NCBI GenBank assembly: GCA_038045945.1
Contig: JBBSXC010000002.1
Span: forward strand, 1 to 16,171
Source of the DNA: Nanobdellota archaeon
GTDB lineage: Archaea; Nanobdellota; Nanobdellia; Pacearchaeales; GW2011-AR1
Reading direction: 5' to 3'
Length of the DNA stretch: 16,171 bases
The notes beneath the pieces are model-generated. The model did not search any database, was not told where the DNA came from, and saw only the letters and a list, made by a program, of their open reading frames with translations. Below are positions 1 through 16,171 of this stretch, piece after piece. The translations under genes were made by a program, and so were the position numbers. Within the stretch, counting starts at the first letter, position 1. Each line of letters opens with the position of its first letter.

Positions 1-3000
1 GCTATAGTTTTGTTATTGCTAGTTGCGTTCTTCTTAACTATTGATCCTCCTCCGCCTCCGCTACCCCCTCCGTTTCCCCCTGATGCTGGTGGTGTATAAC
101 TGTTATTTGTTTCGTTGTTTTCTACTACCGTGTAGTTTGTGAAGTGTTCTACTAAGAATACTAATTCTCCTGTTGTTGAGTCGTAGCTTTCTACTGTGCA
201 TAAGGGTTTTTCGCAGTCAATTCCGTCTCTTTGCACTTTTAGGAGATTAATGTTTTTTCCTCCTCCTATGTTTATTGTTACTGTTGCTGGTTCGTTTGAT
301 AATTCTTTTAGTGCTTGCTCTCCTGTGTCTACTGATACTGTTCCTAGTATGTTTCCTGATTTTTCGTTAAAGATTTTTATGTAATCATTTATTTTTTGTA
401 ATATTTGGTTTACTGTTTTTGTTTGGTCGTATTTTTTGAAGTCTATTATGTTTGTGAATTCTATAACTCCCATACCATTTCTTTCAAGAGTTAAAGGTAC
501 TTTGCTTAAGTCTTCTTCTTTTTCTAAATCTGTTGTTTTTCCCCCATCAAAGTTTTCTTTATATTTTTCGGAATCGGTTTTTGGTATAGTACAAGCGTCG
601 CATACTAATCCTCCGCAATCAATTCCTGTTTCATCGCCATTCATTATTTTATCGTTACATTTTGGTGTCTGTGGCGTATTAGTTAAGCACTGGTTTGTAC
701 AAGAATCAGCATTGTTATTATTGTTCCCATCATCGCATTCTTCTCCTGTTTCTACTTTGCCGTTTCCACAGATTGTTGTTATTTGGCATGAGTTATATCC
801 GCTACAATCTCCTTTACATGATTGTATTCCGCTTTCTTCTCCTACAAAACATGCTTGTGTTGATTTGTCGCAAATTTCTCCTCCCTCTTTTATTCCATTA
901 CCACATACTGATGCCCCGTTTTCTACTCCGTTCATGTCATTAATTATTTCTTGTTCTGTTAATGCCCTATTAAATATTTTTAGTTCATCAATTTTACCGT
1001 AGAATTGTCCATCGTAATTTCTTTCGTCGCTTCCGAATGCCCCTATTGTTATGTCTCCTGGCCCGTTTCCTACTGCTCCTACATTGTTTCCTGGTATGTC
1101 CGTACATCTTTCTCCGTCGAGGTATAATTCTGCATTATTTCCTATTTGTCTTATTGCTACGTGTGTCCATTGCCCGTTTACTGGCTTTGTTGTGCACCTT
1201 GCTGTTCCCAGCCCTAGTGCTGATCCTCTCCATGCTAAAGCGTCTCCATTCATCATGAATGTCCATTCGTAATTAATAGGATTTTTTACTATTATTTCTC
1301 CTCCTCTTTCAAAGTTTTCTGAATAAATCCATCCTGTTATTGTTACTGATCCTGGTATTGATAATGGGCCTTTTATTCTTACATAGTCGTTTATTCCGTC
1401 TAGTTCTAATGCTTGTCCTATTTTTCCTGTTCCGAATTTTGGTTCGTTTTGAGGTATTCCATCTTTTCCCTTATTTTCTCCGCTATTTTTTAGGTCTCCA
1501 TCAAAGTTGTAGTATACTATTGGTTCTGCTATTGGGTAAGAGTTCTCTTCAAGTTGTTTTGGTATTGCTTCGCCAACTATTGAAACTTTATCTCTTATGA
1601 AGTTGTTTATTGCATCTGCTGTGAAACGTTCGTCCCATTTTCCTCTTCTATTCTTTATTGCTTCAAGTGTGAATGACTTTCTGTTTTGTTTTTCTGGGGG
1701 AAAACCTAAGCTTTCCATGTATGCTGCTATTGTTGCTTTTTCCGGGTCCTTAAATTGTGTTTTTGCAAACTTTGCGTCGGGTTCAATGTTGCTTATCCAT
1801 GCAGCATCACTTATGCTTCCATAATTGAAATGTTGTGTTGGAAATCCGTATCTTCCCTCGAGCCCTGTGTTGTAGTATGTGTTTGATGAGAATGATAATT
1901 TTTCGCTTGGCCAACCGTTTACTGATACTCCTTTTGATTGTTCTATTATGTTGTTACGAACGTAGCTTGTTCCTGGTTCTCCAGTAAGTTGCATTCCAAG
2001 ATTTATCCCTATGTTGTCTTCAATTCCGGTTCCTGACCCTTCAAAATTGTATATTTTATTGCCTTCTATTATTAATTCCTCAACAGATCCTGATACTCCT
2101 ATTGCTTGTCCTAAACCTGCTTTCCACTTTAGTGCTATTATGTTGTTAGTTATTTCTAGTCTTCCAAATCCTGGTTTTTGACCGTTTGCTGCTAGATGGC
2201 TTGCTGTTATTCCACTTCCTCTAATGTTCCACCCTCCGTCTCCTTCAAGATCAACTGCTTCTAAAATAACGTTTCTATCTACTTTTGAGTTTATAGAAGG
2301 CCAATCAAAGTTTGGTGCTGTGTATCCTAAAGTTATTCCCATTGGGTTTCCTGCTAAAAAATTGTTTTCAACTAAGTTTTTCCCCACTTCTCCAGCAGCT
2401 CTGTCCATTAGTCCTTCTCCTGCACCATCTGATAATATGTTTTCTCTTACAATAACATTCCAGTTGTTTGCTTGATTGTAAAAATTGTGTAAGAACCATG
2501 TTGCAACTTTTGGATCATTTGCAGTCCTTTCACCGCTTGGCCCCATTTTCAGACCGTTAGAATAATAAACATTTCCTTCATTTAGTAGCTCATCAATTTG
2601 TTCAGTGTATGCTCCAAGGTTTGCTGTTATCTTACCGTTACCATCTGTTACCCATCCGTCATAAACGCTATTTCTTCTGAATTCTAAGTTTGTGTATCCT
2701 TGAACGTTTAGTGCTCCTCCGCTTGGGAAATTATTTCCTTCAACTATTAAGTTTGAGAATTGTTTTCCCCCTCCACCGCTTATTATTGATCCCCCACAAT
2801 GATTCTCTTCACTATAAACAGCAAAGTCTAAATCTCTTATTACAACATTGTTAGACCTCCTTGTTGCATAGCTTCCACATACTAATGCTGGTCTTTCTTC
2901 TAACGTTTCTCCCGTACTGTAACCTCCAAGAATCAATCTTTCTTTATCGCTCCTTCCTGATGTTCCTTGATTTGCTGGATTCCCAAAGCTTTCCCAGTAC

Positions 3001-3482
3001 CATTTGTCTCCAAATCTCATTAATAACCAGTCTGGGTATCCTTCACGTAATTGTGAGTGTCCTGCTGCCAAAGTCTTTTTTGGTCCGCAAAGACTTTCAT
3101 CAGTCGGTGCTATAGGGCACCTGCCCGTCCACTCATCTTTTCCTAAGCTTGAACTAACATATGTTATTATTGTGTCCGAGCTTGGATCAAAAGTTGTCCA
3201 ACCATCCTCATCTGCTCTTGGCTCTGCTATTTCTTTATCATCCTCTGAAGACCAGCATCCCAAATCTAGTTGCCAGTCTAATAATCCATCTCCATCGTTG
3301 TCTATTCCATCGTTACACTCAGTTACTATTGGGCTTAATTCCACATCCTTTCCTCCTTTTCCTGCTTCACCAGTTAGTGTTTGCGAACTTAGTCGCAAGA
3401 TCGTTATTGATAACAAAGCAATTATTATAATTATTAAGAATATTATTCTTTCATCATACTTTTTCACCAAACCTTTTTTCAC
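1..3482 (-). CDS. Large multidomain secreted/surface protein (>1160 aa, 3' end beyond window): N-terminal TM, acidic Cys motif, right-handed beta-helix, LamG-like jellyroll, Cys-rich repeats, beta domain, Gly linker
   Basis: Not in the ORF track because there is no stop inside the window. Manual translation of the open frame from GTG at 3482 (in-frame TAA at 3486-3488; alternative GTG at 3467) gives MKKGLVKKYDERIIFLIIIIIALLSITIL (TM), ECNDGIDNDGDGLLDWQLDLGC, and YVSSSLGKD...LREGYPDWLLMRFGDKW. Beta-helix-type Asn-ladder repeats follow (LIVEGNNF, IVRENIL, VENNFL, ITNNII, IEGNKI, VRNNII; ~1570-3200). LamG motifs YYNFDG, GKIGQALELDGINDYV, WTHVA and FYGKIDELKIFNRAL lie at ~935-1515. CGNGKVETGEECDDGN and CNDKIMNGDETGIDCGG lie at ~590-905, then LVFLVEHFTNY and SGGNGGGSGGGG. 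Confidence 0.9.
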   Translation of the reverse strand, partial: MKKGLVKKYDERIIFLIIIIIALLSITILRLSSQTLTGEAGKGGKDVELSPIVTECNDGIDNDGDGLLDWQLDLGCWSSEDDKEIAEPRADEDGWTTFDPSSDTIITYVSSSLGKDEWTGRCPIAPTDESLCGPKKTLAAGHSQLREGYPDWLLMRFGDKWYWESFGNPANQGTSGRSDKERLILGGYSTGETLEERPALVCGSYATRRSNNVVIRDLDFAVYSEENHCGGSIISGGGGKQFSNLIVEGNNFPSGGALNVQGYTNLEFRRNSVYDGWVTDGNGKITANLGAYTEQIDELLNEGNVYYSNGLKMGPSGERTANDPKVATWFLHNFYNQANNWNVIVRENILSDGAGEGLMDRAAGEVGKNLVENNFLAGNPMGITLGYTAPNFDWPSINSKVDRNVILEAVDLEGDGGWNIRGSGITASHLAANGQKPGFGRLEITNNIIALKWKAGLGQAIGVSGSVEELIIEGNKIYNFEGSGTGIEDNIGINLGMQLTGEPGTSYVRNNIIEQSKGVSVNGWPSEKLSFSSNTYYNTGLEGRYGFPTQHFNYGSISDAAWISNIEPDAKFAKTQFKDPEKATIAAYMESLGFPPEKQNRKSFTLEAIKNRRGKWDERFTADAINNFIRDKVSIVGEAIPKQLEENSYPIAEPIVYYNFDGDLKNSGENKGKDGIPQNEPKFGTGKIGQALELDGINDYVRIKGPLSIPGSVTITGWIYSENFERGGEIIVKNPINYEWTFMMNGDALAWRGSALGLGTARCTTKPVNGQWTHVAIRQIGNNAELYLDGERCTDIPGNNVGAVGNGPGDITIGAFGSDERNYDGQFYGKIDELKIFNRALTEQEIINDMNGVENGASVCGNGIKEGGEICDKSTQACFVGEESGIQSCKGDCSGYNSCQITTICGNGKVETGEECDDGNNNNNADSCTNQCLTNTPQTPKCNDKIMNGDETGIDCGGLVCDACTIPKTDSEKYKENFDGGKTTDLEKEEDLSKVPLTLERNGMGVIEFTNIIDFKKYDQTKTVNQILQKINDYIKIFNEKSGNILGTVSVDTGEQALKELSNEPATVTINIGGGKNINLLKVQRDGIDCEKPLCTVESYDSTTGELVFLVEHFTNYTVVENNETNNSYTPPASGGNGGGSGGGGGSIVKKNATSNNKTI

Positions 3483-3529: not shown

Positions 3530-4456
3530 TTATGGTATTCCGCTGTATTTGAAGTTTATTAGTACGAATATTATTATGAACATTATTGTGCTTATGAAGA
3601 ATAATGGGTATGTCATGTCCAAATTTACTTTTCTTCTTGATAATTTTAGCATTTCTAGCATTGATGCTTTTAGTTCTTCGTTGTTGTTTACTAGTGAGAA
3701 TTGTCCTGCTGTTTCGTAAGCCATTGCTTTTAGTGCTTCTTCGTCTAGTTTTGATACGTATCCTAATATGTTTTCTGCCCCTTTTGTTGTTCCTACTCCT
3801 AGCGTGTTTATAACTATCTCGTTTTGTTTAGCGTACTTTATTATTGCTTCTACTGTGTCTACGTTTATTTCTCCGTCACTTAGGACTATTATTGCTTTTG
3901 TGTCTTCTTCTTTGTACATTGTGCTTGCTGCTATCATTGCATTCATTATGTTTGTTCCTCCTACTCTGTTTACTCTTATGTTTCTTATTGCTTCTCTCAT
4001 TGGTTCTTTGTTTGCTGTTATTTCTTGTTCTATGAACGGTACTCCTGAGAATGACATTACTCCTATTCTTGTGCTTACTGGTGCGTTGTTTACGAATTCT
4101 GTTGCTGCTGTTTTTGCCGCTTCTATTCTGCTCGGTGATAAATCTGTTGTTTCCATGCTTTGTGATGTGTCTATTGCTATTACGAATGAGAATGTGCTTG
4201 CGCTTTTTGTTACGCTCATGTGCATTCCTGCGCTTGCTAGCGACATTATTGCAACTAGGATTATACTTAAATAAAGAACCGTCAGGTTCTTTGAAAAGAA
4301 TTGTATTCCGCTTATTCTGCTTATTGCGTCGAAATTTGCGAATTTTAGTGCTCTCATGTCATGTCTTTTTAATGAGTAGAAGTGTATGAATATTAGTGCT
4401 GGTATTATTAGTATTATTGCTAAATATTTTGGGTTTGTGAATGTGAATATTGCCAT
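3530..4456 (-). CDS. BatA-like membrane VWA domain protein
   Basis: N-terminal BatA-type double TM (FTNPKYLAIILIIPALIFIH), intact MIDAS AIDTSQSM, SRIEAAK, GGTNI, VLSDG and a C-terminal TM. It follows MoxR and DUF58. Confidence 0.9.
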   Translation of the reverse strand: MAIFTFTNPKYLAIILIIPALIFIHFYSLKRHDMRALKFANFDAISRISGIQFFSKNLTVLYLSIILVAIMSLASAGMHMSVTKSASTFSFVIAIDTSQSMETTDLSPSRIEAAKTAATEFVNNAPVSTRIGVMSFSGVPFIEQEITANKEPMREAIRNIRVNRVGGTNIMNAMIAASTMYKEEDTKAIIVLSDGEINVDTVEAIIKYAKQNEIVINTLGVGTTKGAENILGYVSKLDEEALKAMAYETAGQFSLVNNNEELKASMLEMLKLSRRKVNLDMTYPLFFISTIMFIIIFVLINFKYSGIP

Positions 4457-4547: not shown

Positions 4548-5459
4548 TTATGCTCCTTGTAGTATTACGGGTGCTGCTTTTTCTTGTGCTCTTTTTTTCA
4601 TGAATGATGCTAGGTAAAATGGGAAGTGTTTGTTTGTTAATAGCTCTATGAAGTCTGCTGGTGTGCTGTGGAACATTTTTTTTACTTCTTCTTCTTTTTT
4701 TCTTACGTAGTATTCATACTTGTTTTTTGCTACTGATGGGTTTACTACTAGTTTTTCTCCTGTTTGAGGGTTTTCTATTGTTACTTCTTCATCTATATCT
4801 GGTAGTTCTCTCTCTATTGGGTCTCTTATCATTATTCCCACTGTTTCTATTTGTGTTGATAATGCACTCAACTTTTTTTGGAAGTTTTTTGATAGGTGCA
4901 TGAAGTCGCTTACTATGAATATCCCTGTTAGGCTTTTGTCTAAGTGTTGCAAGAGGAAGTCTATTGCTCCTTCTATTTTTGTTTCTCCCCCATAGCTTTC
5001 TGTTCTTTTTAGTATGTCTGCGAATAGTGCGAATCTTTTTGTTCCTCCTTTTGGGTATGCGAACTCATAATATTTTCCTTTTGGCATTATGAATCCTACT
5101 TTGTCTCCGCTTGTTATTACTAGGTGTGCTAGTGCTACTGATACTTCTGCTGCGTATTCGCATTTTAGTTTGTTTGCGCTTCCGAATATCATGTTGTCTC
5201 CTAGGTCTATTATGAATACTATTTTTATGTCTCTTTCTTCTATGTATTGTTTTATTAGTGTTTTGTTAGCTCTGTAACTGGCTTTCCAGTCTATTAGTGC
5301 TGCGTCGTCGTCTGGGCTGTATACTCTGTATGAGTCGAATTCTAGTCCTTTTCCTCTAAATAGTATTCTGTATATTATTCTTTTTAGTTGGAATTTTCTC
5401 ATTGCTCCTTCGAATTCTGATATGTTTCTTGCGTAGTCTACGTTTAGTTCCCTTTCCAT
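4548..5459 (-). CDS. DUF58 family protein (MoxR-associated, vWA-like)
   Basis: Signature FRGKGLEFDSYRVYSPDDDAALIDWKASYR...KQYIEERD, GDKVG, IVSDF and IRDPIE. Directly downstream of MoxR. Confidence 0.92.
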   Translation of the reverse strand: MERELNVDYARNISEFEGAMRKFQLKRIIYRILFRGKGLEFDSYRVYSPDDDAALIDWKASYRANKTLIKQYIEERDIKIVFIIDLGDNMIFGSANKLKCEYAAEVSVALAHLVITSGDKVGFIMPKGKYYEFAYPKGGTKRFALFADILKRTESYGGETKIEGAIDFLLQHLDKSLTGIFIVSDFMHLSKNFQKKLSALSTQIETVGIMIRDPIERELPDIDEEVTIENPQTGEKLVVNPSVAKNKYEYYVRKKEEEVKKMFHSTPADFIELLTNKHFPFYLASFMKKRAQEKAAPVILQGA

Positions 5460-5463
5460 AGTG

Positions 5464-6561
5464 TTATGGTATTTCTACTTTGTCTAGAATTGCTTGTATT
5501 ACTTTTTCTGGTGTTACTTTTTCGCTTTGTGCTAGGTAGTTTAGTATCATTCTGTGTCTTAGTATTTCGAATGCTACTTTTCTTACGTCGCTTGGTATTA
5601 CAAAGTTTCTTCCGTTTATTAGTGCTTCTGCTTTGCTTGCTATGAATAATCCTATGGTTGCGCGTGGACTGCACCCCATCTCTAAGAATTGGTTGTATTC
5701 TGTTGCTTGGTTGTCTCTTGTTGCTTCTACTATTCTTACTATGTATTCTTCTATTTCTTTACTTAAGTATATGTCTTTTACTAGTATTTGCATTCTTACT
5801 ATTTCTTCTGGTGTTAGTATTGGTTTTATTTCGAAATCTTCGAATTTGAATAGGCTCATGTTTCTTTTCATTATTACTTTTTCTTCGTCTTTGCTTGGGT
5901 AGTCCATTAGTATTTTGAATAGGAATCTGTCTACTTGTGCTTCTGGTAAAAAGTATACTCCGCTTGTTTCTACGGGGTTTTCTGTTGCCATTACGAAGAA
6001 TGGTTTTGGTAAGGGGTATGTTTCTTTTCCTATTGTTACGTTTCTTTCTTGCATTGCTTCTAGTAGTGCGCTTTGTGTTTTTGGTGGACTTCTGTTTATT
6101 TCGTCTGCTACTAAAAAGTTTGCGAATATTGGTCCTTTTACTACTTCCATTCCTTTGTCTGGTGTGTATGTTGTTATTCCTACTATGTCTGTTGGCAAGA
6201 GGTCTACTGTGAATTGTACTCTTTTTGCTTCGCATCCTGTTACTTTTGCTAGTGTTATTACTAGTAGTGTTTTTGCTATTCCTGGTACTCCTTCTAGTAG
6301 TACGTGTCCGTTGCATAGTAGTCCTCTTATTAGTCCTTCAACTACTTTTTCTTGTCCTACTACTACTTTTTTTATCTCGTTTTTTACTTCTTGTAGTTTT
6401 TTCCCGCATGTTGCTACTTCTTCTTCTGTTGCTCTTCCCCCATAGTCTCCTTCTTGTGTTGGTGTTTGTCCTTTGAATTTTTTTGTTTCTTCAGAATTAG
6501 TTTTTTTTGTTTTTGTATCAATTCTTTTTTTGTTTATTACTTTCTCTTTATTCTTCTTCAT
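5464..6561 (-). CDS. moxR: MoxR family AAA+ ATPase
   Basis: Walker A GHVLLEGVPGIAKT, RVQFTVDLLPTDIVG, Walker B LVADEINR, SALLEAMQE, ATENPVE, LPEAQVDRF and GCSPRA. Start placed at ATG 6561 because GAGGTG (6568-6573) lies 6 nt upstream; the track's GTG at 6570 is part of that site. Confidence 0.95.
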   Translation of the reverse strand: MKKNKEKVINKKRIDTKTKKTNSEETKKFKGQTPTQEGDYGGRATEEEVATCGKKLQEVKNEIKKVVVGQEKVVEGLIRGLLCNGHVLLEGVPGIAKTLLVITLAKVTGCEAKRVQFTVDLLPTDIVGITTYTPDKGMEVVKGPIFANFLVADEINRSPPKTQSALLEAMQERNVTIGKETYPLPKPFFVMATENPVETSGVYFLPEAQVDRFLFKILMDYPSKDEEKVIMKRNMSLFKFEDFEIKPILTPEEIVRMQILVKDIYLSKEIEEYIVRIVEATRDNQATEYNQFLEMGCSPRATIGLFIASKAEALINGRNFVIPSDVRKVAFEILRHRMILNYLAQSEKVTPEKVIQAILDKVEIP

Positions 6562-6567
6562 AATTAG

Positions 6568-6606
6568 CACCTCTCCTCATTTACTTGTTTTTTTAGATTA
6601 TTAAAT
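6568..6606 (-). promoter_or_regulatory. Shine-Dalgarno GAGGTG (6568-6573) and TATA-like ATTTAATA (6599-6606) for moxR
   Basis: GAGGTG is a partial match to the archaeal GGAGGTGA consensus. The TATA-like box sits in the 66-nt intergenic gap. Confidence 0.5.
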
Positions 6607-6627: not shown

Positions 6628-9600
6628 TTATATTTTGAATTCTGAAAAGTTTGGTTCTCTTCTCATTCTCATTCTGTTGAATAAGTGGTATACGAATATT
6701 AACGATAGTATTCCTAGTGTTCCAGATACTAAGTATACTAGTATGTCTCTTGTTGGCGTTTTTGGGCCGATTATTGTTGGTCTTTGTGCTATTGAGTTTT
6801 TACATGCTCTTACTACTTCGTTGCTGTATTGCCATGCTTCGTCTGCTTTTCCTTCAGCTAATGCCTTTTTTGCTCTGTCTAGTGATTCTTTTAGTTCTGC
6901 GCACTCAGGGTTTTGTACTAGTAGTTCATCTGTGAATAGTATTATTTGTTCTACTTCTGTTTTGTTTGTTTCTATTATGTCTAGGAAGAATTTTCCCCAG
7001 TCTGAGAAGCTAGGGTCCCTTACTGTTCCATTAATTATTATTTCTACTCTTCCTGTCTTTTTTGTGTCTATTGATATTGTCATGTTTGTTGTTTTTTTCT
7101 GTCCTGATGTTAATGAATCAAAAAATGTTTGTCCGAAACTTACGTTTACTATTCCCGTGACGTTTTCGTTTACTACTACTAAACTTTTTAGGTTTATCCC
7201 TGTTAGTTTTGTTTGTCCTGAGTTTAGTAGTGTTAATGGTACGACTATTTGGTCGTACTTGAATGATGATATTTTGTCAGGCAATAATAATTTTAGGCTT
7301 ACTGGTCTTGATGCTCCTCCTCCGCCTCCAACCCCTCCTCCGCTGCTTGGCGTTGTTACCGATGTTGATGATGGTGTTAGGTTTACTGAGAAGTTGTTGC
7401 TTTTTGCTAGGCTATAGGTATCATTTGCTATTATTTGGAAGTATTCTATTCCTGTTACTGTTGACGTTGATACATTGAATTTTGGTAATTCTCCTGATGA
7501 GTTTGTCCAGTTTGTTATTGTTGCTGTAAATGATCCGCTTATTTGTGAAAAACTCGAATTCATCCTTAAGAATGAGAATTCTACTGAGTAATTGTTACAT
7601 GTGTTTGAGTTCACGTCTCCGTCTGAGAAGTAGTCTGTTAGTGTGTATGTTATACTTCCTCCTGCTGTAGTGTTTGCTATTATTGACGCAAAGCTTACTG
7701 GATAGTTTGTGTGGTTTACGCTCAAGTTTATTATTGTTGTGTTGCTAAAGTACGGGTTTGATATGTTTATAGTTAAATTTTTCGCCCCACCACATGTTGT
7801 TTCGTCTGTTAGGTTTAGGTATAATGCTAATGTTACGTTTGCTCCTCCTGCTCCGTTTCCTACGCTCGTGTTTCTCACTATTCCGTCAATTATTATTGTG
7901 TAGTTTAGGTTGTCTCCTACTGTGTGGTTTCCTGTCATGTTTATCATTATGGTAGAGTTTTCGCTTGAGTATACTACTGTTGGGTTGTATGCTACTATTC
8001 TTACTTGGTCGTATACGTTTATCCAAAAGTCCATTGATGATTGTGCGTTGCTTGTGTCGTTTACAGATACGTTTATGTGGTATGATCCGCTTATTGTTGA
8101 ATTAATACTCAGGTTTATTATTCCAGTACTTGTATTGAACGTGCTCGAATTTGCGAAGCTTGTTCCTTGTAAGAATGAGTATGTTATGTTATATGTGCCC
8201 CCGCTATCAGTGCTATTGTCTTCTCGATCGGTGATGTTCATTCTTATTGTCAGGTTTGCCCCTTGGTATGTTGATTGGTTGCTTATTTGTGTTATGTTTG
8301 GTGCGTGGTTTATCGAGTTAATTGTTATTGTGAATGAGCTCGTTGCGTTTAGTCCGCTTTGGTCTTGTGCTTGCACATAAACATTATAAATTTTTTGCAG
8401 TGCTCCTCCTAAGTCGCTTTTGTTTGGTGTGAATGTTGCTGAATAAATCATCAGGTCTGGTTGGCTTGGTGTAGGTACAGAAAGTAGTGTTAGATTGAAT
8501 AGGTTAGTATTAGGTCCGACTATTGTAAAGTTGAAGCTGATATTTTCATTATAGATTCCTTTTTGTTTTATTCTGAAATCGTTGTCTCTAACATTTATCT
8601 GCATTGACCCTGAAGAACTATCTTCACTTACTGTTGGTCCAGCAAAAGAATCAATTGTTGGTGTGTCGTTAATATTGCTTACGTATATGCTTATGTTTGT
8701 TACTCCTGGTGTTCTTCCGTCTGATGCGTTTATTGTTATGTTATGGTATCCTACGTCTATGTCTATTGGTGTAAAGTTTATTATTCCTTGCGAGTTTGAT
8801 CCGTTATAGAATTCTGGGAATTGTGTTTGGCTTAGGTTGTAATAACTGAAATTAATTAAGTCTCCATCAGGGTCGCTTACATTGTTGCTTAGGTTTAAGT
8901 AAAAGTTTGTGTTCTCTTCTACTGTAAAGTTTTGCCCTATGCTCCATTCTGGTGCTGAGTTTCCTACTAGTTGTATTATGAATATGAAGTTTGATCCTGA
9001 AAATCCGTTATTGTCTACTACGCTTAGGTTTATTGTGTTATTTCCTAGTGTTGTAGAGTTTGCTGTGAATGTTAGTGATACTTGTGATCTGTTGTTTGTG
9101 TCTCCAGTTTTTGCTATTGTTATCCAGGGTATTGTTGATCCGCTCATGTTTTTTGCTGTGAAGTTTATTGATTCATTAAATCCCCCGTTACTCACGTTTT
9201 TGTTAGGCACTAATAAGTCGTTGTCTGTTGCGTTTATGTATAGGGTGTATGTGTTTCCGTTGAATCCTGTAAAGTTTGTTGTTGGAAAGAGGGATACTGA
9301 GTCGTTAACGTTGAATACTTGTAGTCTTATTAGTCTTGATGAATACTTGTTTGGTGGGTATCCTATATTGTCTAATACTGATATGTTTATTGACCAGTTT
9401 CCTACTTGGTAATCATCAGGTGTGAAGTTTATTGCTGTTGATGAGTTATAGTTTACTGGTGTTACGTTTGTTGCGTTCAAAAACCATGTGAAATTACTTA
9501 CGTATGTTAGGTTTGCTAATTCGTCAATGTCTGATGCGTTCACATAACAGGAAAATGGTGTGTTTTCTGATATGTTGAAGTATGGTGTGCTTGCTCCGAA

Positions 9601-10797
9601 TTCTTGTCCGCAAATGTATGTTAAGTTTGGTGCTTCATTGATGTTATTAATCACGAAGAATAGAGAATAATTTTTTTGTCCGTCTTGGGCAAATCCGTAT
9701 CCGCTAGCGTTATCTGTTACTGAGATGTTTATTGTGTAGTTTCCTACGTCATCCCTTCCTGCTGGTGTGAAGTTTACAAACATTGCTGTCGTGTTATAAG
9801 TTGTGTTGTATTGTGTTACGTTCCATATTGTGCAGTTTGGCCCTGTGTTTCTACTACTCCAATTTGCTAGTATGCATGATGAGAATGTTACGTTAAATCT
9901 TAATGGCAAGTGTGGTTCTTCATCTATTGCGAATATTACTGATGTGAAGTTGTTTCCTGGTTCCGTTGCGTTTATTGTTATGTTTTGGAAGTTTTGTAAT
10001 AGTGGCACGTCATTAATTTCTGTTATGTTTAGTGCTAGTAGTGATCCTTGGTCTAATGATTCTGTATCTCTAACTTTTAGTTCTATTTGCATATCTGTCC
10101 CGTTGTGTTTGCTTAGTGTTGCATTAATTTTTAGTATTCCTGTGCTTACGTTTATGCTGAATATTGATGAGTTTACAGTGTAGTTTGATCCTAGGCTAAA
10201 TGTTAAATTATCGTTTGTGTCTGGTTCTGTGATGTTTGCTGTCATGTTATAAGTGCATATTGTGTCTTCTACGCATCCTAAAATGTCGTGTGTTAGGCTG
10301 CTTCCGTCAAAGTTTATCCAGTCAGCTCCCGATTCTTTTGATATTACTGGTATCGTGTTTGTTATTAGAAAATTTTCTTGTAGTATGCTTTGTGCGCTTG
10401 CGTTATAGCACCATACTTCGAACGTGTGGTTTCCTTTGTATGTGAATGTTCTGTTATAGTAGTATGGTAGTGCTGTTGTGTTATATGTCATGTTTACATA
10501 AGCACCGTATGTTCCTGTAAAGTTGAATCTTATACTACATGTGTCTGGTACGTTTGCTCCGGTAATGTTTGTGTAGTTTGCGTAGAATGTTACGTTATAA
10601 GTGCTTCTTTCTGTTATTGGGGGGTTTTCTGTGTCGTCCCATATTGATAAGTTGTAGTTTGTGCTAGAGTTGTTTGTTCTGGTTAATGCTTGTGTTGTTT
10701 GTAATGATGCTAATACTGAAATCATTATTGTTATTGTTAGTATAACTAAGAATATTTTCTCGTTCTTTATTGCCTGATCTCTTTTTTTCTTTTTCAT
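6628..10797 (-). CDS. Giant membrane-anchored surface protein with tandem cadherin-like/Ig-like repeats (putative adhesin)
   Basis: Signal/TM at the N-terminus. Units of ~100-115 aa end in EINDVP, NINEAP, NVNDSV, GNSAP, NINDTP and SINHAP, with DxD motifs (DIDE, DNDL, DPDGD) and recurring NFTPxxxxVG. After the SSGGGVGGGGG linker come an Ig-like domain, a helical segment with two Cys, a C-terminal TM and a basic tail. Confidence 0.88.
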   Translation of the reverse strand: MKKKKRDQAIKNEKIFLVILTITIMISVLASLQTTQALTRTNNSSTNYNLSIWDDTENPPITERSTYNVTFYANYTNITGANVPDTCSIRFNFTGTYGAYVNMTYNTTALPYYYNRTFTYKGNHTFEVWCYNASAQSILQENFLITNTIPVISKESGADWINFDGSSLTHDILGCVEDTICTYNMTANITEPDTNDNLTFSLGSNYTVNSSIFSINVSTGILKINATLSKHNGTDMQIELKVRDTESLDQGSLLALNITEINDVPLLQNFQNITINATEPGNNFTSVIFAIDEEPHLPLRFNVTFSSCILANWSSRNTGPNCTIWNVTQYNTTYNTTAMFVNFTPAGRDDVGNYTINISVTDNASGYGFAQDGQKNYSLFFVINNINEAPNLTYICGQEFGASTPYFNISENTPFSCYVNASDIDELANLTYVSNFTWFLNATNVTPVNYNSSTAINFTPDDYQVGNWSINISVLDNIGYPPNKYSSRLIRLQVFNVNDSVSLFPTTNFTGFNGNTYTLYINATDNDLLVPNKNVSNGGFNESINFTAKNMSGSTIPWITIAKTGDTNNRSQVSLTFTANSTTLGNNTINLSVVDNNGFSGSNFIFIIQLVGNSAPEWSIGQNFTVEENTNFYLNLSNNVSDPDGDLINFSYYNLSQTQFPEFYNGSNSQGIINFTPIDIDVGYHNITINASDGRTPGVTNISIYVSNINDTPTIDSFAGPTVSEDSSSGSMQINVRDNDFRIKQKGIYNENISFNFTIVGPNTNLFNLTLLSVPTPSQPDLMIYSATFTPNKSDLGGALQKIYNVYVQAQDQSGLNATSSFTITINSINHAPNITQISNQSTYQGANLTIRMNITDREDNSTDSGGTYNITYSFLQGTSFANSSTFNTSTGIINLSINSTISGSYHINVSVNDTSNAQSSMDFWINVYDQVRIVAYNPTVVYSSENSTIMINMTGNHTVGDNLNYTIIIDGIVRNTSVGNGAGGANVTLALYLNLTDETTCGGAKNLTINISNPYFSNTTIINLSVNHTNYPVSFASIIANTTAGGSITYTLTDYFSDGDVNSNTCNNYSVEFSFLRMNSSFSQISGSFTATITNWTNSSGELPKFNVSTSTVTGIEYFQIIANDTYSLAKSNNFSVNLTPSSTSVTTPSSGGGVGGGGGASRPVSLKLLLPDKISSFKYDQIVVPLTLLNSGQTKLTGINLKSLVVVNENVTGIVNVSFGQTFFDSLTSGQKKTTNMTISIDTKKTGRVEIIINGTVRDPSFSDWGKFFLDIIETNKTEVEQIILFTDELLVQNPECAELKESLDRAKKALAEGKADEAWQYSNEVVRACKNSIAQRPTIIGPKTPTRDILVYLVSGTLGILSLIFVYHLFNRMRMRREPNFSEFKI

Positions 10798-10814: not shown

Positions 10815-12758
10815 TTATTGTTGGTCGTTTTCCTCAATTCTTTTCTTGATTGCGAATAATTTGTATAATGTGTATATTATTGCTACTATTAGTAATAGTA
10901 TTAGTATTATCAGTAAGTATAACAAGTAGTTTATTTTTTTTGGTTTTTCTATCTGACAAGAATTTGGGCATGGACCTCCACAGTCTATTGCTTCTTCTCC
11001 TTGGTTTTGTATTGTGTCTGAGCATGTTGGGCATTGTGAGCATGGACCTCCACAGTCTACTAATACTTCGCATGATTTGTCATGACAATTTTTCACGTTG
11101 TCATTACATGATGGGTTTGCTACGTAGAAGCATTCTTCTGTGACGTTAGGTTTTTTTGTTGTTGTTTTGCAATTGTTTATGTCTTTACAGTCTAATAGTT
11201 TTATTCCGCATTCTTCTTCGCTCCATCCTTCTAATCGGCATTTTATTTCTATTATTCCTCTGCTTAAGTCGTCTAATAATTTGTTTTTGTATAGTCCGTT
11301 AATGTTTTGGCACATTGCGGTGTTATCACAAACCCATCTTTCTTGGCATGTTCCTCCACCTCCTCCGCCTCCCCCTCCAGTGCTTGATCTTGGTGGGTTG
11401 CTTATTGTTATTGTCCATGATCTGCTATCGTTTAGTTCTCCGTCGCTTACTCTTACTGATACGTTGAATGTTCCTCCATCTGAGAATGTTTTGTTGAACT
11501 GGTTTGTTAGCGATGTTTCTAGCACGCCATTTATTGACCAGTACGCGCTTGGTGTTGTGTCATCTGGGTCTTCAGTTGATACGTTGAAGCTTATTGTTAG
11601 TGGTGGTGTACTACTTATTGTTGTGGTTGTTGGGTAGTATGATGTTATGTTTGGCGGCCTATTTTGGTTTGTTACTGTTAGTTCAAAGTTTGAGCAGTTG
11701 TATCCTGGACCGCCTGTGTATCCGCAGTATGTTGCGTTTGGGTGTATGCTCGTGTTTAGTCCTTTATCTCTTACGCATACGCTTACGTTGTATAATCCTA
11801 CTACTGATGCGTTTGCTGTCATGTTTATTTTTCCGCTAGTAGAATTTATTGTGAATATTGGTATTCCTGATATGAACGTTACGTTGTAGGTTAGGTTTCC
11901 TCCGCTGACGTTTCCGTCTTCTGTGTCGTTTGCTGTTATTTGTTTTATGAATTTTGCGTTAAACCATACTGTTTGTGCTCCTAATAGTTCTATGCTAGGG
12001 TTATGGTTTACTGCCACTACGCTTATGTTTGTTATTGCTGTGTCTGCTCTGCTTCCGTCTGATGCTGACACGTTTTCTCTGTAACTTCCTACTTGCGATT
12101 TTGTTAGTGTTCCGGAGAATATTTCTGCTATTGTTAAGTTTCCTGTTTGTGATAGTTTTGTTATGAAGAATGGGTTTATTGGTGTCATTGATACGCTTAT
12201 TGTGTCTAAGTCTTCGTCAGTTATGTTTATTAGGTGTGATAAGAATGAGTCTTCACAGGCTAATATTTGCCCTGAGAGGTTTAGTATTTGTGGTGCGGAG
12301 TTTGATATTGTTACTGAGAGTGTTACGTTTGTGTTTCCTACTTGTCCTCCTGTTAGGTTTGCGTATACTGCTAGTTTGTTTGTTCCTGTGATTAATGTTA
12401 TTGTTGTGTTTGGTGTGAATACTTGTCTGTTAACTATTATTGTTCCGCTTCCGTTGTATAATGTGTAGAACCATGTTTGTATTGTTTTTTCTGCTGATAC
12501 GTTTAAGTCTACGCTTTTGTTTTGTGATAAGTTGAACGTGTATGTTGTGTTTGTTGGGCTTGCTATTGTTATGTTTGGCGCGTTTACTACTACTTGTACG
12601 AATAATTGTGCTACTGTGCTTGAACTTCCGAATAAAAAATCGAAGTAACTTGCGAATGTTGATATCTTCCCTACTTCTGGTTTTGTGTAGCTTGCTATCC
12701 AGAAAATGTTTACTAGCATTATTAGTAAGAATCCTAATACCACCAGCTTTTTGTACAT
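10815..12758 (-). CDS. Membrane-anchored surface protein: cadherin/PKD-like Ig repeats, poly-Gly linker, Cys-rich region
   Basis: N-terminal TM; SNSAPQI, VNHNPSI, QNRPPNI, DEDLD and DPDD motifs; G9 linker; two CxD...DCGGPC repeats; C-terminal TM plus KKR. Start moved to ATG 12758 (track used TTG 12770) based on TATA spacing. Confidence 0.88.
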   Translation of the reverse strand: MYKKLVVLGFLLIMLVNIFWIASYTKPEVGKISTFASYFDFLFGSSSTVAQLFVQVVVNAPNITIASPTNTTYTFNLSQNKSVDLNVSAEKTIQTWFYTLYNGSGTIIVNRQVFTPNTTITLITGTNKLAVYANLTGGQVGNTNVTLSVTISNSAPQILNLSGQILACEDSFLSHLINITDEDLDTISVSMTPINPFFITKLSQTGNLTIAEIFSGTLTKSQVGSYRENVSASDGSRADTAITNISVVAVNHNPSIELLGAQTVWFNAKFIKQITANDTEDGNVSGGNLTYNVTFISGIPIFTINSTSGKINMTANASVVGLYNVSVCVRDKGLNTSIHPNATYCGYTGGPGYNCSNFELTVTNQNRPPNITSYYPTTTTISSTPPLTISFNVSTEDPDDTTPSAYWSINGVLETSLTNQFNKTFSDGGTFNVSVRVSDGELNDSRSWTITISNPPRSSTGGGGGGGGGTCQERWVCDNTAMCQNINGLYKNKLLDDLSRGIIEIKCRLEGWSEEECGIKLLDCKDINNCKTTTKKPNVTEECFYVANPSCNDNVKNCHDKSCEVLVDCGGPCSQCPTCSDTIQNQGEEAIDCGGPCPNSCQIEKPKKINYLLYLLIILILLLIVAIIYTLYKLFAIKKRIEENDQQ

Positions 12759-12780
12759 GATTAATATCAATTAAAATGAA

Positions 12781-12858: not shown

Positions 12859-13284
12859 CTAAATTATTGTTACTATTTTTATTATTACTTTTCCTTTATA
12901 TTCCCCGTTTTTTGCTTCTTTTGGTATTTTTACGGTTAATAATACTTCTTTTTTCTCTTTTGGTGAGATTACTATTTTTTGTTCTACAAAGTATGGTTCT
13001 ATTTCTTCACTAGCAGTTATTTTTGCTATTACTTCTTTGTTGTAATTGTTGTTTATCTCTATTTTTGCTGTTCCTGATCCTCCAGGCATCATTTTTCCGA
13101 AGAATACTACTCCCGGTATTACTCCTATCCCCCCTTGGTCTGATATTATGAAGTACGATTCTAAAACTTTTTCTTCTAGTAGGTAGGTGTCTTGTTTTGT
13201 TGTGCTCGCAATTATTGTTATTATTGACGAAATTATTAGTATTATTGTTATAATCAGTACTATTTTTGTTGTTTTATTTTTCAT
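12859..13284 (-). CDS. Small N-terminally anchored single Ig-like domain protein (~141 aa)
   Basis: MKNKTTK plus a TM, then VFFGKMMPGG...IEINN...IPKEAKNGEYKGKVII. ATG 13284 overlaps the upstream gene by 11 nt, which is more plausible than GTG 13323 (50-nt overlap). Confidence 0.8.
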   Translation of the reverse strand: MKNKTTKIVLIITIILIISSIITIIASTTKQDTYLLEEKVLESYFIISDQGGIGVIPGVVFFGKMMPGGSGTAKIEINNNYNKEVIAKITASEEIEPYFVEQKIVISPKEKKEVLLTVKIPKEAKNGEYKGKVIIKIVTII

Positions 13285-14434
13285 TTTTTTCTTGAGATTT
13301 TTTGTTTGTTTGTTTTCCCACATTTTTTCTCTTTTTATAAATTATTATCCCTGCTATTGTTAGTATTATGATTATTGCTGTACTTATTGCTGTTATCATT
13401 ATCATGCTGTTTTGTTTTGATACTTCTAAGAATCCTTTTGTGCTTGAACTTTTTTCTGAGTAGTGCAAGATTATTTCTATTTCGTATTTTCCCGTTTTTA
13501 TGTTTGTTGCGTCTGCGAACCCTTTTAGTTGATAATTTTGAAATCCTGATACACTTACCGGCGGTGTTAGGAAGCTCATTCCTTCTTCTCCTGTTTTTGT
13601 TAGGCTTACGTTTGCGTATACTCCGTCTATTTTGTCTTTCCAGTCGTTTTGTATAGTTATTTCGAAAGGATTTATTTTTCCACTAATGATTTTTTTTGTG
13701 TAGTTTATTACTCTTATGTTTAGTTCTCCTATTCTGAAGTTGTGCTCATTTATTGATGGTTTTTCTCCTCCGTAATCTACTATTGATACTGCTCTGTAAT
13801 CTCCTGGTGTGTATTCTGATGTGTCTATCTTTTTTGTGTATTCTGCAGTTTTTGTTGGTTCTAATAATTCTGCTCCCTTATCAGTGAAATACATTTTTTC
13901 TATTAATTCTTCTCCGGAAAATATTTCTAGGCTAGGGTTTGTGAATAAGCTTTCTTTTCCTCTATTTACTATTTGTATTTTTGCTTCTGCTTCTACTCCT
14001 TTGTTTACGCTGTCTATTTGTAGTGTTGATTCTAAGTATTTTCCTGGGTATGGCACGTATATTTTTATTAGTGCTCCTACTGATATTGCTGTTCCTAATC
14101 CTCCTTTAGGGTCTACTTCTTGTTTTGCGAATATGTACAGAAGATTTGTTCCTACTTTTTTTGCTTCTGATGGTAATTTTATTATCGCTTTGAATGTTCC
14201 TGATCCTTGCATTTTTGTTTTGTCAAACCTTACGCTTTCTAGCATGTCTCCTTCTGCTGAGATGTTTGTTTTTATTTCTGGTGTTGTGTCTACTGAGTAT
14301 TCTATTGTGAATTCTTTTCCTGCTTCGTAGTCTACTTCTATTATTGCTGGTCTTATTCCTAGGTGTGCTGATGCTATGCTTATTGATAGAATTATCAGTA
14401 TTGATAATTTTATTATTTGCTCACCTTTTTTCAT
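13274..14434 (-). CDS. Secreted, C-terminally anchored protein with ~3 Ig-like domains
   Basis: Class I-like signal (ISIASA^HLGIRPA), beta-strand patterns with IVNRG, PGDYRA and TGKYEIEI, a C-terminal TM and a Lys-rich tail. Confidence 0.85.
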   Translation of the reverse strand: MKKGEQIIKLSILIILSISIASAHLGIRPAIIEVDYEAGKEFTIEYSVDTTPEIKTNISAEGDMLESVRFDKTKMQGSGTFKAIIKLPSEAKKVGTNLLYIFAKQEVDPKGGLGTAISVGALIKIYVPYPGKYLESTLQIDSVNKGVEAEAKIQIVNRGKESLFTNPSLEIFSGEELIEKMYFTDKGAELLEPTKTAEYTKKIDTSEYTPGDYRAVSIVDYGGEKPSINEHNFRIGELNIRVINYTKKIISGKINPFEITIQNDWKDKIDGVYANVSLTKTGEEGMSFLTPPVSVSGFQNYQLKGFADATNIKTGKYEIEIILHYSEKSSSTKGFLEVSKQNSMIMITAISTAIIIILTIAGIIIYKKRKNVGKQTNKKSQEKNEK

Positions 14435-14554: not shown

Positions 14555-14625
14555 TTATGCTGCTGCGGCTGCTGTTGCTGTTAGTGTGCTTGATAGTGCT
14601 CCTGTTGATCCGTCGTATGGTACTG
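14555..14625. repeat. Direct repeat copy 1 (69/71 identical to 16101-16171)
   Basis: Direct comparison; both mismatches are synonymous Ala codons. Confidence 0.95.
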
Positions 14626-15199
14626 CTAGTATTATGCTTATGTTTATTTGGTCTTGTGTGTCTATGTATCCTAGTTGGCTGCAGTATTGGTCTCCTGGTG
14701 AAGTTATGTTCGGGTCTCGCCATAGGCTTAGGTTGCTTACTAGTGCTCCGTTGCATGCTCCTGCGTCGCTGCTTGTTACGTTTAGTTGGTATCTTCTGTT
14801 TCCTTCGCTTCCTGCGAATAGTCCTGTTGCGTTTTTATCTGATGATAATTTTATTGTTACGTTTGTTGTTCCAATGTTTTCTAAAGCTAATGGTGTTATT
14901 CCGCTAGTACTCCAGTTTCCTCTTGTTACTACAGGTCCTGCATTTGCCGCTAGTAGTGATGCATTGTTTTGTCCGTTGTCTATGCTTCCTGCTCCCCAGT
15001 TTATTGTGTCTCGTGTGAAGTTTACACTTACTACTGTTGCTACTGTTACGTTCACGTATCCGCTTGTTCCAAATCCTGTTATCTCACTAATTTTTTGGTA
15101 TTTGTTTAGTGCTAAGAAAGAATTTGTTGCTGCGAATCCTACAGCAATTATTGCTAATAAAAGCACAACATACCCTAGACGATTATTTTTATTTTTCAT
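14555..15199 (-). CDS. Secreted beta-sandwich protein, paralog C (putative filament subunit)
   Basis: N-terminal TM, ITGFG, GYVNVTV, RGNWSTSG, LENIG, two Cys and PYDG...LSSTLTAT. Clear paralog of 15480-16091. 10 N-x-S/T sequons. Confidence 0.88.
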   Translation of the reverse strand: MKNKNNRLGYVVLLLAIIAVGFAATNSFLALNKYQKISEITGFGTSGYVNVTVATVVSVNFTRDTINWGAGSIDNGQNNASLLAANAGPVVTRGNWSTSGITPLALENIGTTNVTIKLSSDKNATGLFAGSEGNRRYQLNVTSSDAGACNGALVSNLSLWRDPNITSPGDQYCSQLGYIDTQDQINISIILAVPYDGSTGALSSTLTATAAAAA

Positions 15200-15202: not shown

Positions 15203-15397
15203 TTATCCGCTCCCGTTTGATCCTGCCTGAGGATTTGGTACTACTGTTAATTCTACATTTGCTTGATTGTTTCCTTCTGCTTGAGGATTATTGTATAATT
15301 GTTTATTTATGTTTAATGACATCGTCATAACTATTGAGAATACTGATAAAAGTATTGCGACAACAAGCAAAGTTACTATTAATCTATCGGACACCAT
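15203..15397 (-). CDS. Small single-TM protein (~64 aa) with one extracellular beta-strand
   Basis: MVSDRLIVTLLVVAILLSVFSIVMTM (TM), a polar linker and ANVELTVVP. Its stop is 3 nt before the next ATG, and a TATA box lies upstream. Alternative start at 15409. Confidence 0.78.
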   Translation of the reverse strand: MVSDRLIVTLLVVAILLSVFSIVMTMSLNINKQLYNNPQAEGNNQANVELTVVPNPQAGSNGSG

Positions 15398-15425: not shown

Positions 15426-15433
15426 TTTATAAA
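15426..15433 (-). promoter_or_regulatory. Archaeal TATA box (TTTATAAA) preceded by purine-rich BRE-like AACAAAG
   Basis: In the intergenic gap. It predicts a transcription start near 15403, favouring ATG 15397. Confidence 0.62.
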
Positions 15434-15479: not shown

Positions 15480-16091
15480 TTACGGCGCTGCTGAGATTGT
15501 TGCTGTTATTGTGTCTGATAATATTCCACTATTTCCGTCATATGGTATTGTTAGTAAGAAGTCTATTCTTAGTGTGTCTTGGTCGCTCAGGTATCCTAAT
15601 TGTTCGCAGAATAAATATCCGCTTGTGTTTACGTTTCTGAAAGTCGAGTTTGATAATGCTCCAGGACTACAGCTTCCTGTTTCGTTGCTTGTTATATTCC
15701 ACATGTATCTTCTGTGCCCTTGGCTTCCTCCGAATAGTGAACTTGCGTTTTTGTTTGTGCTCAGTGTTAGTGTAACGTTTCTTGATCCTATGTTCTCTAG
15801 TACTAATCCGCTCATTCCGCTAGTGCTCCAGTTTCCCCTTAGTACTGATGGCCCAGAGGTTTCTAATGTTGCGTTGCTTTGTCCATCGTCAATGCTTCCC
15901 GGTCCGAAGTTTAGTGTTTCTTGTGTGAAGTTTACACTAATTATTGTTTCCACTGTTATGTTTACGTATCCTTCTGATCCTGCTAGTCCCGATAATCCTT
16001 TAATGAAACTTTGTGGTAAGTTGTAAGAAATTATTGTGTTTAGTATTAGTACGATTGTTATTGTTATTAATACTAACTTTTGAGAATTCAT
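15480..16091 (-). CDS. Secreted beta-sandwich protein, paralog B (putative filament subunit)
   Basis: TM, LSGLAG, GYVNITV, RGNWSTSG, LENIG, two Cys and PYDG...LSDTITAT. 10 sequons. Confidence 0.88.
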   Translation of the reverse strand: MNSQKLVLITITIVLILNTIISYNLPQSFIKGLSGLAGSEGYVNITVETIISVNFTQETLNFGPGSIDDGQSNATLETSGPSVLRGNWSTSGMSGLVLENIGSRNVTLTLSTNKNASSLFGGSQGHRRYMWNITSNETGSCSPGALSNSTFRNVNTSGYLFCEQLGYLSDQDTLRIDFLLTIPYDGNSGILSDTITATISAAP

Positions 16092-16100: not shown

Positions 16101-16171
16101 TTATGCTGCTGCTGCCGCTGTTGCTGTTAGTGTGCTTGATAGTGCTCCTGTTGATCCGTCGTATGGTACTG
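16101..16171 (-). CDS. 3' end of a third paralog (A), truncated by the window edge
   Basis: Encodes ...VPYDGSTGALSSTLTATAAAAA*, identical to the C-terminus of 14555-15199. Not in the ORF track. Confidence 0.85.
   Translation of the reverse strand, partial: VPYDGSTGALSSTLTATAAAAA

Follow-up and report, generated by a model that had tools for sequence, protein, structure and literature searches.

What can a membrane protein of 64 amino acids (aa) contribute to the surface of an archaeal cell when its predicted outer part amounts to little more than a single beta-strand? The question is raised by a small open reading frame (ORF) of a Nanobdellota archaeon (assembly GCA_038045945.1, contig JBBSXC010000002.1), which lies directly ahead of the gene for a pilin-like protein that we call subunit C. 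The window analyzed here is a stretch of 16,171 nucleotides (nt), the first 16,171 bases of contig C2 in a genome of 847 kb (35 % G+C, 93 % complete, 7 contigs). An original prediction, made from the letters of the window, had proposed that the small protein fills the open groove of the basal subunit of a filament. Our analysis leans, at slightly better than even confidence, towards a permanent membrane-anchored plug that fills the groove left free at the proximal end of a fibre or stalk linked by strands. The elements of the small gene are as follows.

15203..15397, minus strand: small ORF encoding the 64-aa strand-only membrane protein; stop codon at 15203-15205, product beginning MVSDRL
15320..15382, minus strand: transmembrane (TM) helix, residues 6-26, hydrophobic window 3.0
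15263..15319, minus strand: N/Q-rich tether SLNINKQLYNNPQAEGNNQ, residues 27-45, 19 aa
15242..15262, minus strand: donor strand ANVELTV, residues 46-52
15206..15241, minus strand: Pro/Gly-rich tail, residues 53-64
15426..15433, minus strand: TATA box TTTATAAA, 36 nt ahead of the ATG at 15397

The architecture that had been described, an ORF for a protein of about 64 aa with a TM helix, an N/Q linker, the ANVELTV strand and no body domain, is all present in the sequence. So is the reported placement, since the stop codon ends 3 nt before the ATG (15197-15199) of the 214-aa subunit C; the gene for its paralog, subunit B, ends 71 nt upstream of the small ORF. The assignment of a TATA box to the small gene itself is strengthened by comparison: of 45 upstream regions of small ORFs, 36 have a TATA-like hexamer that starts at -45 to -22, and the starts peak sharply at about -29. 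An alternative in-frame ATG at 15409 would give a protein of 68 aa. It lies too near the TATA box for the usual archaeal spacing between TATA box and start, which makes the 64-aa start the more likely one. With a TATA box of its own and a place before the pilin gene, the small ORF would be the first cistron of a unit composed of small gene and pilin. Searches of Pfam and NCBIfam with the small protein gave no family, only noise below threshold (e.g., DUF443, 17 bits).

A pattern scan with one genome per species yielded 46 related loci, all of them from metagenome-assembled genomes (MAGs) of Pacearchaeota, Woesearchaeota or Nanoarchaeota. A hidden Markov model (HMM) of the small ORF found it in 43 of the 46, and in the remaining three (L009, L021 and L035) the contig ends before or inside the subunit gene; the ORF is thus present in every locus that is complete upstream. 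The subunit gene follows directly in 44 of 46 instances, our own genome included, the other two being a locus with a fragmented subunit (L006) and one cut by the locus end (L029). Stop and start overlap in 24 of these 44 pairs (by 4 nt in 13, 8 in 6, 11 in 3 and 14 in 2), and the gap between the non-overlapping genes measures 0-3 nt in 11 pairs and 6-158 nt in 9. An exhaustive HMMER search with the 64-aa query against 1.84 billion representatives returned 17 proteins at E<=1e-3, all of 43-70 aa. A separate search for longer or fused forms gave none at E<=0.001, which is weak evidence that such forms are lacking. Within the loci, the small-protein HMM also weakly matches double-anchored proteins of 329-338 aa.

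The conservation of the small protein is concentrated in its strand. Among 59 homologs, which share 11-73 % identity with the protein of the window and have a mean column identity of 25 %, the linker varies in sequence and measures 16-28 aa (median 20), and the tail of 5-22 aa is variable except for E53 (28/59) and P54 (30/59). In the strand, position 46 is G or A in 56 of 59, position 48 is V, I or L in 58, and positions 50 (L/V/I/F/M) and 52 (V/I/L) keep their character in all 59, while positions 47, 49 and 51 vary. The resulting pattern, [GA]-x-[VI]-x-[LVI]-x-[VI], conserves alternate positions and so points to a strand with one buried face. As far as computation can establish it, the gene is real, and both its synteny and its strand are conserved. 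In four relatives we noted by eye a second donor-like strand in the tail (e.g., SVNLFVEGG...SVGLYVEGG), which suggests that one anchor could plug two grooves and which fits a structural plug:

L020:4724-4924, L026:2950-3171, L039:3840-4058 and L046:2998-3243: two-strand relatives of the small protein

The TM helix is probably an uncleaved signal anchor with its N-terminus predicted to lie inside. K or R occurs among the first eight residues, on the N-terminal side of the helix, in 57 of the 59 homologs. The [IL][TS]G motif of the neighboring subunits was said to be missing from the small protein, and in the homologs even the loose form [LIVFMA][TS]G matches in only 8 of 59, at scattered positions and never at the aligned one, against 61 of 68 subunits. 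Lack of the cleavage motif makes an uncleaved helix a reasonable prediction, and the argument first made from the single sequence holds as reasoning for the family. A class III (type IV pilin) signal peptide was rejected on visual inspection of the homolog alignment, where no [KR][GA] cleavage motif precedes the helix.

The significance of the strand becomes apparent when it is compared with the subunits that flank it.

14555..15199, minus strand: subunit C, 214 aa, with a signal peptide and an incomplete beta-sandwich (family alignments, AlphaFold2 model, fold matches)
15074-15082, minus strand: ITG motif of subunit C
15041-15061, minus strand: N-terminal strand GYVNVTV of subunit C, residues 47-53
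15480..16091, minus strand: subunit B, 203 aa, lacking its own small ORF; identity with subunit C 48 %, HMM score 272 bits

A word-seeded search found 21 relatives of subunit C. In the 68 subunits of the family alignment, the [LIVFMA][TS]G motif (61 subunits) occurs within the first 75 residues, and G42 is kept in 65; coming after the signal helix, the motif is a plausible signal-peptidase site. The N-terminal strand has the same alternation as that of the small protein, with G/A at position 47 (66/68), V/A/I/L at 49 (65/68), V/L/I at 51 (68/68) and V/I/L at 53 (68/68). Its outward face carries an N-x-T sequon (N50 in 66/68, T/S52 in 67/68). A second sequon, N60-F-T62 (15014-15022), is equally conserved in the subunits, and no such sequon occurs in the strand of the small protein; the pilin strand may therefore be N-glycosylated and that of the small protein not. 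Alignment of the small protein with the subunit family by hhalign sets ANVELTV opposite GYVNVTV (93.2 %, E 3e-7, 56 columns), the register that had been proposed by eye, with the TM helices contributing part of the score. We think that the small gene probably arose as a duplicate of the 5' end of a pilin gene, signal peptide and strand, minus the cleavage site.

The same profile similarity could be taken as the mark of a remnant. The small ORF would then have no function as a protein, being either the decaying relic left by duplication of a pilin 5' end or an upstream ORF whose only effect is to tune pilin translation, and its place directly before the pilin start does resemble that of a leader ORF. 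A relic or leader would hardly be expected to keep intact frames of 58-87 aa in 43 loci at such divergence, with an alternate-position pattern and a conserved topology of charge and helix, or to show the specific predicted binding described below, for which controls gave 0.00. We regard this explanation as very improbable.

The subunits themselves fall outside known families. None of the 68 pilins matched a Pfam or NCBIfam family, the subunit profile found nothing meaningful among the sequences of the Protein Data Bank (PDB; best E 0.72), and the 115 profile hits of the pilin among 5.8 billion proteins are all unnamed and without a Pfam domain. Within the phylum the family is widespread, occurring in 146 of 301 sampled genomes and 103 of 225 genera, often with 2-10 matches per genome (three in our own, ten in G064). 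The source record of one pilin homolog (P0063) assigns it to a MAG of Candidatus Parcubacteria, in the candidate phyla radiation (CPR). An AlphaFold2 model of the subunit built on 20 sequences was unusable (predicted local distance difference test, pLDDT, 57). The model used here, built on the alignment of 68 sequences (pLDDT 88, predicted template modelling score 0.71), shows a signal helix, an unpaired segment at residues 39-58 and then a beta-sandwich. In this model the subunit's own strand, 47-53, ends 5 residues before the first strand of the body, and would be too close to fold back into its own groove. A Foldseek comparison of the model with the PDB gave no match at E<=0.001; among the 45 rows listed, subunits of chaperone-usher pili account for 26 (CupE, Csu, Fim, Pap, Saf, Cfa, Caf1 and CS20), and the best TM-scores normalised by target reach 0.50-0.56. 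The predicted fold is thus pilin-like and is not assigned to any solved family.

The proposal that the strand fills a subunit groove was examined by predicting the complex of subunit C (residues 43-214, its own N-terminal strand included) with the small protein (residues 27-64), each with an alignment. The interface score ipSAE (interaction prediction score from aligned errors) was 0.88, 0.87 and 0.86 in three runs, against 0.00 for the best of three controls; in the calibration of the tool, 58 of 80 solved complexes reach this mark, as do 2 of 110 mismatched pairs, counts that apply only roughly to our own alignments. At least 86 % of contacts are common to the runs, and the partner has a pLDDT of 67-68. 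Residues 40-55 of the small protein contact subunit residues 195-210 and 63-78, two segments that are among the most conserved in the family. Against the last strand of the subunit the closest pairs run antiparallel (small protein to subunit, 46-206, 48-204, 50-202 and 52-200), and against the segment INWGAG they run parallel (48-66, 50-68 and 52-71). The subunit's own strand stays outside the confident interface, and it is from this predicted complex that we infer an acceptor groove. The topology predicted is that of donor-strand exchange, as described for chaperone-usher and Elr pili. The docking anticipated by the original prediction is accordingly found in the models (0.87 against 0.00, with the subunit strand kept in); the support that this lends to groove filling is computational.

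These elements can be assembled into a mechanism. The small protein would be a single-pass protein with a cytoplasmic N-terminus, which outside the cell would do no more than hold out one beta-strand on a tether some 20 residues long. That strand, copying the four residues that face inward in the pilin's N-terminal donor strand, would enter an open groove antiparallel to the last strand of the subunit and complete its incomplete beta-sandwich. A strand without an acceptor domain leaves nothing to be added behind it, so the small protein would mark the membrane-proximal end of the fibre or stalk and keep it fixed in the cytoplasmic membrane. The remainder of the fibre would consist of pilins joined by their N-terminal strands and bearing lectin-type adhesins with a terminal pilin-like domain, and membrane-anchored immunoglobulin (Ig)-like helpers would assist in its assembly.

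Several considerations weigh against a permanent plug. The filament, like the strand exchange between subunits that would build it, is a deduction from the sequences. The high interface scores may partly reflect the memory that the prediction model has of solved donor-strand complexes. Geometry poses a second difficulty. The anchor precedes the strand and the predicted fit is antiparallel, so that the tether has to double back along the subunit before it reaches the membrane, a path that a linker of 16-28 aa may just allow. Stoichiometry poses another. A first cistron whose stop so often overlaps the pilin start should be made in roughly equal amounts with the pilin, and near-equimolar synthesis would imply very short fibres if the small protein were an efficient terminator. 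Equal synthesis suggests a tether or a placeholder more readily than a scarce terminator that sets length, and argues against simple length control, which had been part of the original proposal. The role of true base anchor could belong to the 651-aa-type proteins described below, which combine a donor-like strand with a TM helix at the C-terminus, and an adhesin domain that aligns from pilin residue 49 may carry a donor-like strand of its own, complicating a simple picture of tip, shaft and base.

The stoichiometric argument bears directly on another possible role, to which the predicted groove binding is equally compatible. The small protein could be a membrane-tethered placeholder or primer, capping each new pilin groove one to one until the next pilin strand displaces it, and hence a mini-chaperone or nucleator in the manner of ElrE of the Elr pili or of the TapA strand instead of a permanent end piece. 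Its place as first cistron, the shared promoter and the overlaps suggest just such 1:1 synthesis. The small ORF is moreover as universal as the pilin (43/46 loci), while the anchors of Elr pili are reported to be variably present (bioRxiv 10.64898/2026.10.17.759780). The orientation of the strand points the other way. It is predicted to be antiparallel to the last strand of the pilin, the orientation of the final state, whereas the chaperone strands of Elr, in the same report, are parallel and leave a pocket free. Because the strand offers the same four pocket residues as the pilin strand, there is no apparent thermodynamic drive for its displacement. The loci already encode Ig-like, TM-anchored chaperone candidates, and extra pilin paralogs such as subunit B have no small ORF of their own. 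We consider transient capping unlikely, while granting it a real share of the probability, and retain the permanent basal plug as the preferred account.

The genes around the small ORF and its subunits provide candidates for the remaining parts.

16101..16171, minus strand: C-terminal end of a third subunit gene, cut by a 100-N gap beyond the window
13274..14434, minus strand: exported Ig-like protein of 386 aa, a candidate chaperone anchored in the membrane by a C-terminal TM helix
12859..13323, minus strand: protein of 154 aa; TM helix at the N-terminus, a single Ig domain of PapD-like/ASH type
10815..12770, minus strand: 651-aa protein with an N-terminal TM helix, a donor-like strand AQLFVQVVV, a PKD-like/Cys-rich body and a C-terminal TM helix
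L005:8101-10083, L015:8114-10111, L019:8128-10110 and others: relatives of the 651-aa type
G000:C2 18598-22887 (L047:2327-6616): the genome's own 1429-aa LamG/DUF2341 lectin-type protein, with a pilin-like domain at residues 1281-1424

The canonical order in the loci is a large adhesin, proteins of about 160 and about 410 aa, the small ORF, the pilin, proteins of about 370 and about 140 aa, and sometimes one of about 650 aa. The window holds the second half of this order together with extra copies of small gene and pilin, and the first half lies just beyond the gap. There (G000:C2 16172-16409) a near-identical copy of the first 46 codons of the small ORF follows a different upstream region. 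A second small-ORF copy and a third pilin at the gap indicate that the unit of small ORF and pilin was duplicated and that its repeats were collapsed during assembly. In four DNA runs of a single study, contigs confirm the presence of the sequence, and their variants fit a second copy of the small ORF. One of these contigs (X3) appears to hold the missing junction, with 26 differences and a net deletion of 3 nt. Between the gene for a 423-aa helper and the second small ORF we also noted a cytoplasmic-looking ORF of 76 aa (G000:C2 16488-16718), with no relative in the 46 loci.

The 386-aa protein and its 423-aa paralog represent a family with a signal peptide, Ig-like domains and a C-terminal TM helix that is found in 38-39 of the 46 loci. 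Its commonest Pfam match is PF11797 (WxLIP_HBD, DUF3324), in 17 of 57 members with a best E of 9.1e-9, and it lies immediately ahead of the C-terminal TM helix, as is the case in ElrE. When ten members were scanned one by one, their scores were 16.7-27.3 bits against a cut-off of 28.9, and generic Ig families such as CARDB match as well, so that the link to DUF3324 chaperones is only suggestive. The family profile found nothing meaningful among PDB sequences (best E 0.0085, to unrelated or uncharacterised Ig-like chains). In a protein atlas the 386-aa protein falls among generic Ig-like clusters, of which one, mostly bacterial (Uhriibacteriota), scores 0.95 and is a lead. This cluster and the CPR-labelled pilin homolog hint either at mis-binning or at a system shared by DPANN archaea and CPR bacteria. 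Proteins of the 154-aa type occur in 31 of 46 loci. Pfam matches of the 154/187-aa family (51 members) comprise ASH (12), Cep192_D4 (12), PapD-like (4) and MSP (3), and PF06030 (DUF916) matches a single member (E 5e-4).

The 651-aa type is present in 9 loci, and by eye its relatives show, often together with LTG, a G-x-[IL]-x-[FL]-F-V-E-G strand after the signal. The family could represent a second kind of strand-bearing base protein, with an ElrB-like orientation. Its N-terminal module recurs in a shorter double-anchored type of 329-345 aa (L003, L004, L006, L016 and L017).

A pilin-like domain forms the C-terminal end of eight large proteins in the loci. An HMM of this adhesin C-terminal domain hits residues 1281-1424 of the 1429-aa protein and both pilins, and hhalign aligns the domain with the pilin family over 140 columns (98.5 %, E 3e-15). 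The alignment begins at pilin residue 49, and an adhesin with both a donor-like linker strand and a groove may stand within the fibre and not only at its tip. That the adhesins end in an acceptor-type domain invites a simpler explanation, in which no polymer is formed. The small protein would serve as a detachable TM anchor for one pilin-like adaptor, whose own strand holds one adhesin, so that the three make up an adhesin dock. The operon layout implies the near-equimolar expression that such a dock would use, and polymerisation of the pilin is itself a deduction of ours. Small genomes and an intimate episymbiotic lifestyle are expected of the DPANN group. The many loci and genomes with 2-10 pilin matches, however, suggest diversity of a shaft, and the combination of donor strand and groove in the pilin is the defining layout of the polymerising subunits of chaperone-usher, Elr and Pam pili. 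We judge the dock to be quite unlikely, and continue with a fibre anchored by the small protein.

Other genes of the window were noted alongside. A 1389-aa ORF (6628-10797) has a signal anchor, cadherin/Big-like repeats, many N-x-S/T sequons and a C-terminal TM helix, and an ORF of at least 1160 aa (3-3482) runs off the start of the window; both lie on the same strand and are probably further adhesins. The pilin-like C-terminal domain was not detected in the 1389-aa protein, and the ORF of at least 1160 aa lay outside the set searched. On the same strand, after the surface-protein genes, are genes for a MoxR-type AAA+ ATPase (5464-6570), a DUF58 protein (4548-5459) and a BatA/VWA protein (3530-4456). 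This common MoxR-DUF58-VWA (Bat-like) trio has relatives in only 2-3 of the 46 loci, and a link to the pilus locus is conjectural.

A wider proposal, to which we give somewhat less than an even chance, is that roughly one in two Nanoarchaeota-type DPANN archaea makes a donor-strand-exchange pilus with the help of chaperones and without an usher. Such a pilus, the first to come from Archaea, would stand as a deep counterpart to Elr/WxL pili (Bacillota) and Pam pili (CPR bacteria). At the base would be a component of the smallest possible kind, a bare strand on a membrane tether derived from a truncated pilin gene, and the lectin-tipped fibre would be the main organelle of host attachment. Pili with membrane-anchored chaperones are described as specific to Bacillota or to CPR bacteria in their respective reports (bioRxiv 10.64898/2026.10.17.759780; bioRxiv 10.64898/2026.03.03.709456). 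An archaeal counterpart, if true, implies a much older origin or repeated invention in single-membrane cells, and the locus therefore bears on the evolution of donor-strand fibres. How DPANN archaea attach to their hosts is largely unknown, and the locus offers a testable parts list of adhesin, shaft subunit, helpers and membrane plug. The 64-aa protein pares the concept of a pilus base subunit down to a single tethered strand, and it provides a simple experimental handle, for a synthetic peptide QANVELTVVPNP should cap assembly or compete with it.

Among fibres already known, those of Archaea that exchange donor strands (ABP, cannulae and Tat-dependent pili) are said to be chaperone-free, and our literature search found no description of a system like the present one in DPANN or other archaea. 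In the TasA fibre of Bacillus subtilis, the accessory protein TapA reportedly donates a strand to the fibre subunit and has been linked to anchoring and nucleation, a likeness to the small protein in strand donation and anchoring; it differs in being a larger, folded protein. TasA subunits are said to have the peptidase M73/TasA fold. The Pfam families of TasA and peptidase M73 gave no match in the 68 pilins or the proteins of the window, a SipW-type peptidase not having been searched for elsewhere in the genome, and the TasA fibre appeared as one weak fold hit only of the subunit model. Terminators of the PapH type end the donor-strand fibre of chaperone-usher pili at its base by donating a strand and accepting none, which is the role proposed here. 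PapH, however, is a full pilin whose groove is barred from exchange, expressed at a low level and anchored through the outer-membrane usher, whereas the small protein is a bare strand in a system proposed to be usher-less.

A parallel in cell plan is offered by the Pam pili, usher-less donor-strand pili of ultrasmall, single-membrane episymbiotic CPR bacteria (bioRxiv 10.64898/2026.03.03.709456, PMC13278184; June 2026). Pam chaperones have C-terminal TM helices, and the terminator PamR is predicted to insert its N-terminus in the last pilin and to tether the fibre (PMC13278184). The system proposed here would likewise combine an usher-less donor-strand pilus on a single membrane with TM-anchored chaperones and a terminator tethered to the membrane. 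From the same description, PamR is a folded, RbmA-like protein and the small protein a bare strand, and Pam pilins have two domains with the inter-domain linker as donor strand, unlike the DPANN pilin; the likeness is one of description.

The closest known protein is ElrB of the elr operon of Enterococcus faecalis, a system reported there to be confined to Bacillota (bioRxiv 10.64898/2026.10.17.759780; October 2026). In that operon, ElrD is a WxL-domain pilin that polymerises by N-terminal donor-strand exchange, ElrE a DUF916/DUF3324 membrane protein that acts as chaperone, with parallel strands that leave a pocket free, and ElrA an adhesin with a terminal WxL domain (bioRxiv 10.64898/2026.10.17.759780). 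ElrB is a 13-kDa LPxTG protein with a donor strand and no acceptor domain, which AlphaFold places at the pilus base as terminator and anchor (bioRxiv 10.64898/2026.10.17.759780). For both proteins, on this account, the role in the pilin groove is predicted and not demonstrated.

The differences from ElrB are substantial. As described, ElrB has a cleaved signal, an N-terminal strand and a C-terminal LPxTG motif with a TM helix, and is linked to peptidoglycan by sortase. The small protein has 64 aa, an apparently uncleaved N-terminal TM helix and its strand near the C-terminus, at residues 46-52 of 64, and not at a mature N-terminus freed by cleavage. No LPxTG was seen by eye, without a pattern search, in the 59 aligned homologs, whose only TM helix is N-terminal, and there is no cell wall. 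The geometry of the tether, with its anchor ahead of the strand, is opposite to that of ElrB. The strand motif [GA]-x-[VI]-x-[LVI]-x-[VI] also departs from the [S/T]-x-[G/A]-x-[V/I]-x-F reported for Elr. The WxL domain (PF13731) has no match in our whole genome at E<=10 and none in the 68 pilins or the 115 profile hits. A WxL identity of the pilin was considered and rejected, the nearest named cluster in the protein atlas being WxL at 0.79, below the bar of the tool. Given the lack of LPxTG, the inverted order of anchor and strand and no detectable WxL domain, we class the small protein as ElrB-like in its working and not as a member of the family.

The likenesses concern organization. The small protein, like ElrB, offers a true donor strand in register with that of the pilin, carries no acceptor domain and docks in the groove of the predicted complex. 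Its gene, again like that of ElrB, stands beside a pilin, a membrane-anchored chaperone (two-domain in Elr, a candidate here) and adhesins in which a variable payload precedes a C-terminal pilin-type domain. By analogy, the DPANN locus would possess the parts list and the logic of the Elr system, with the small protein as the functional counterpart of ElrB.

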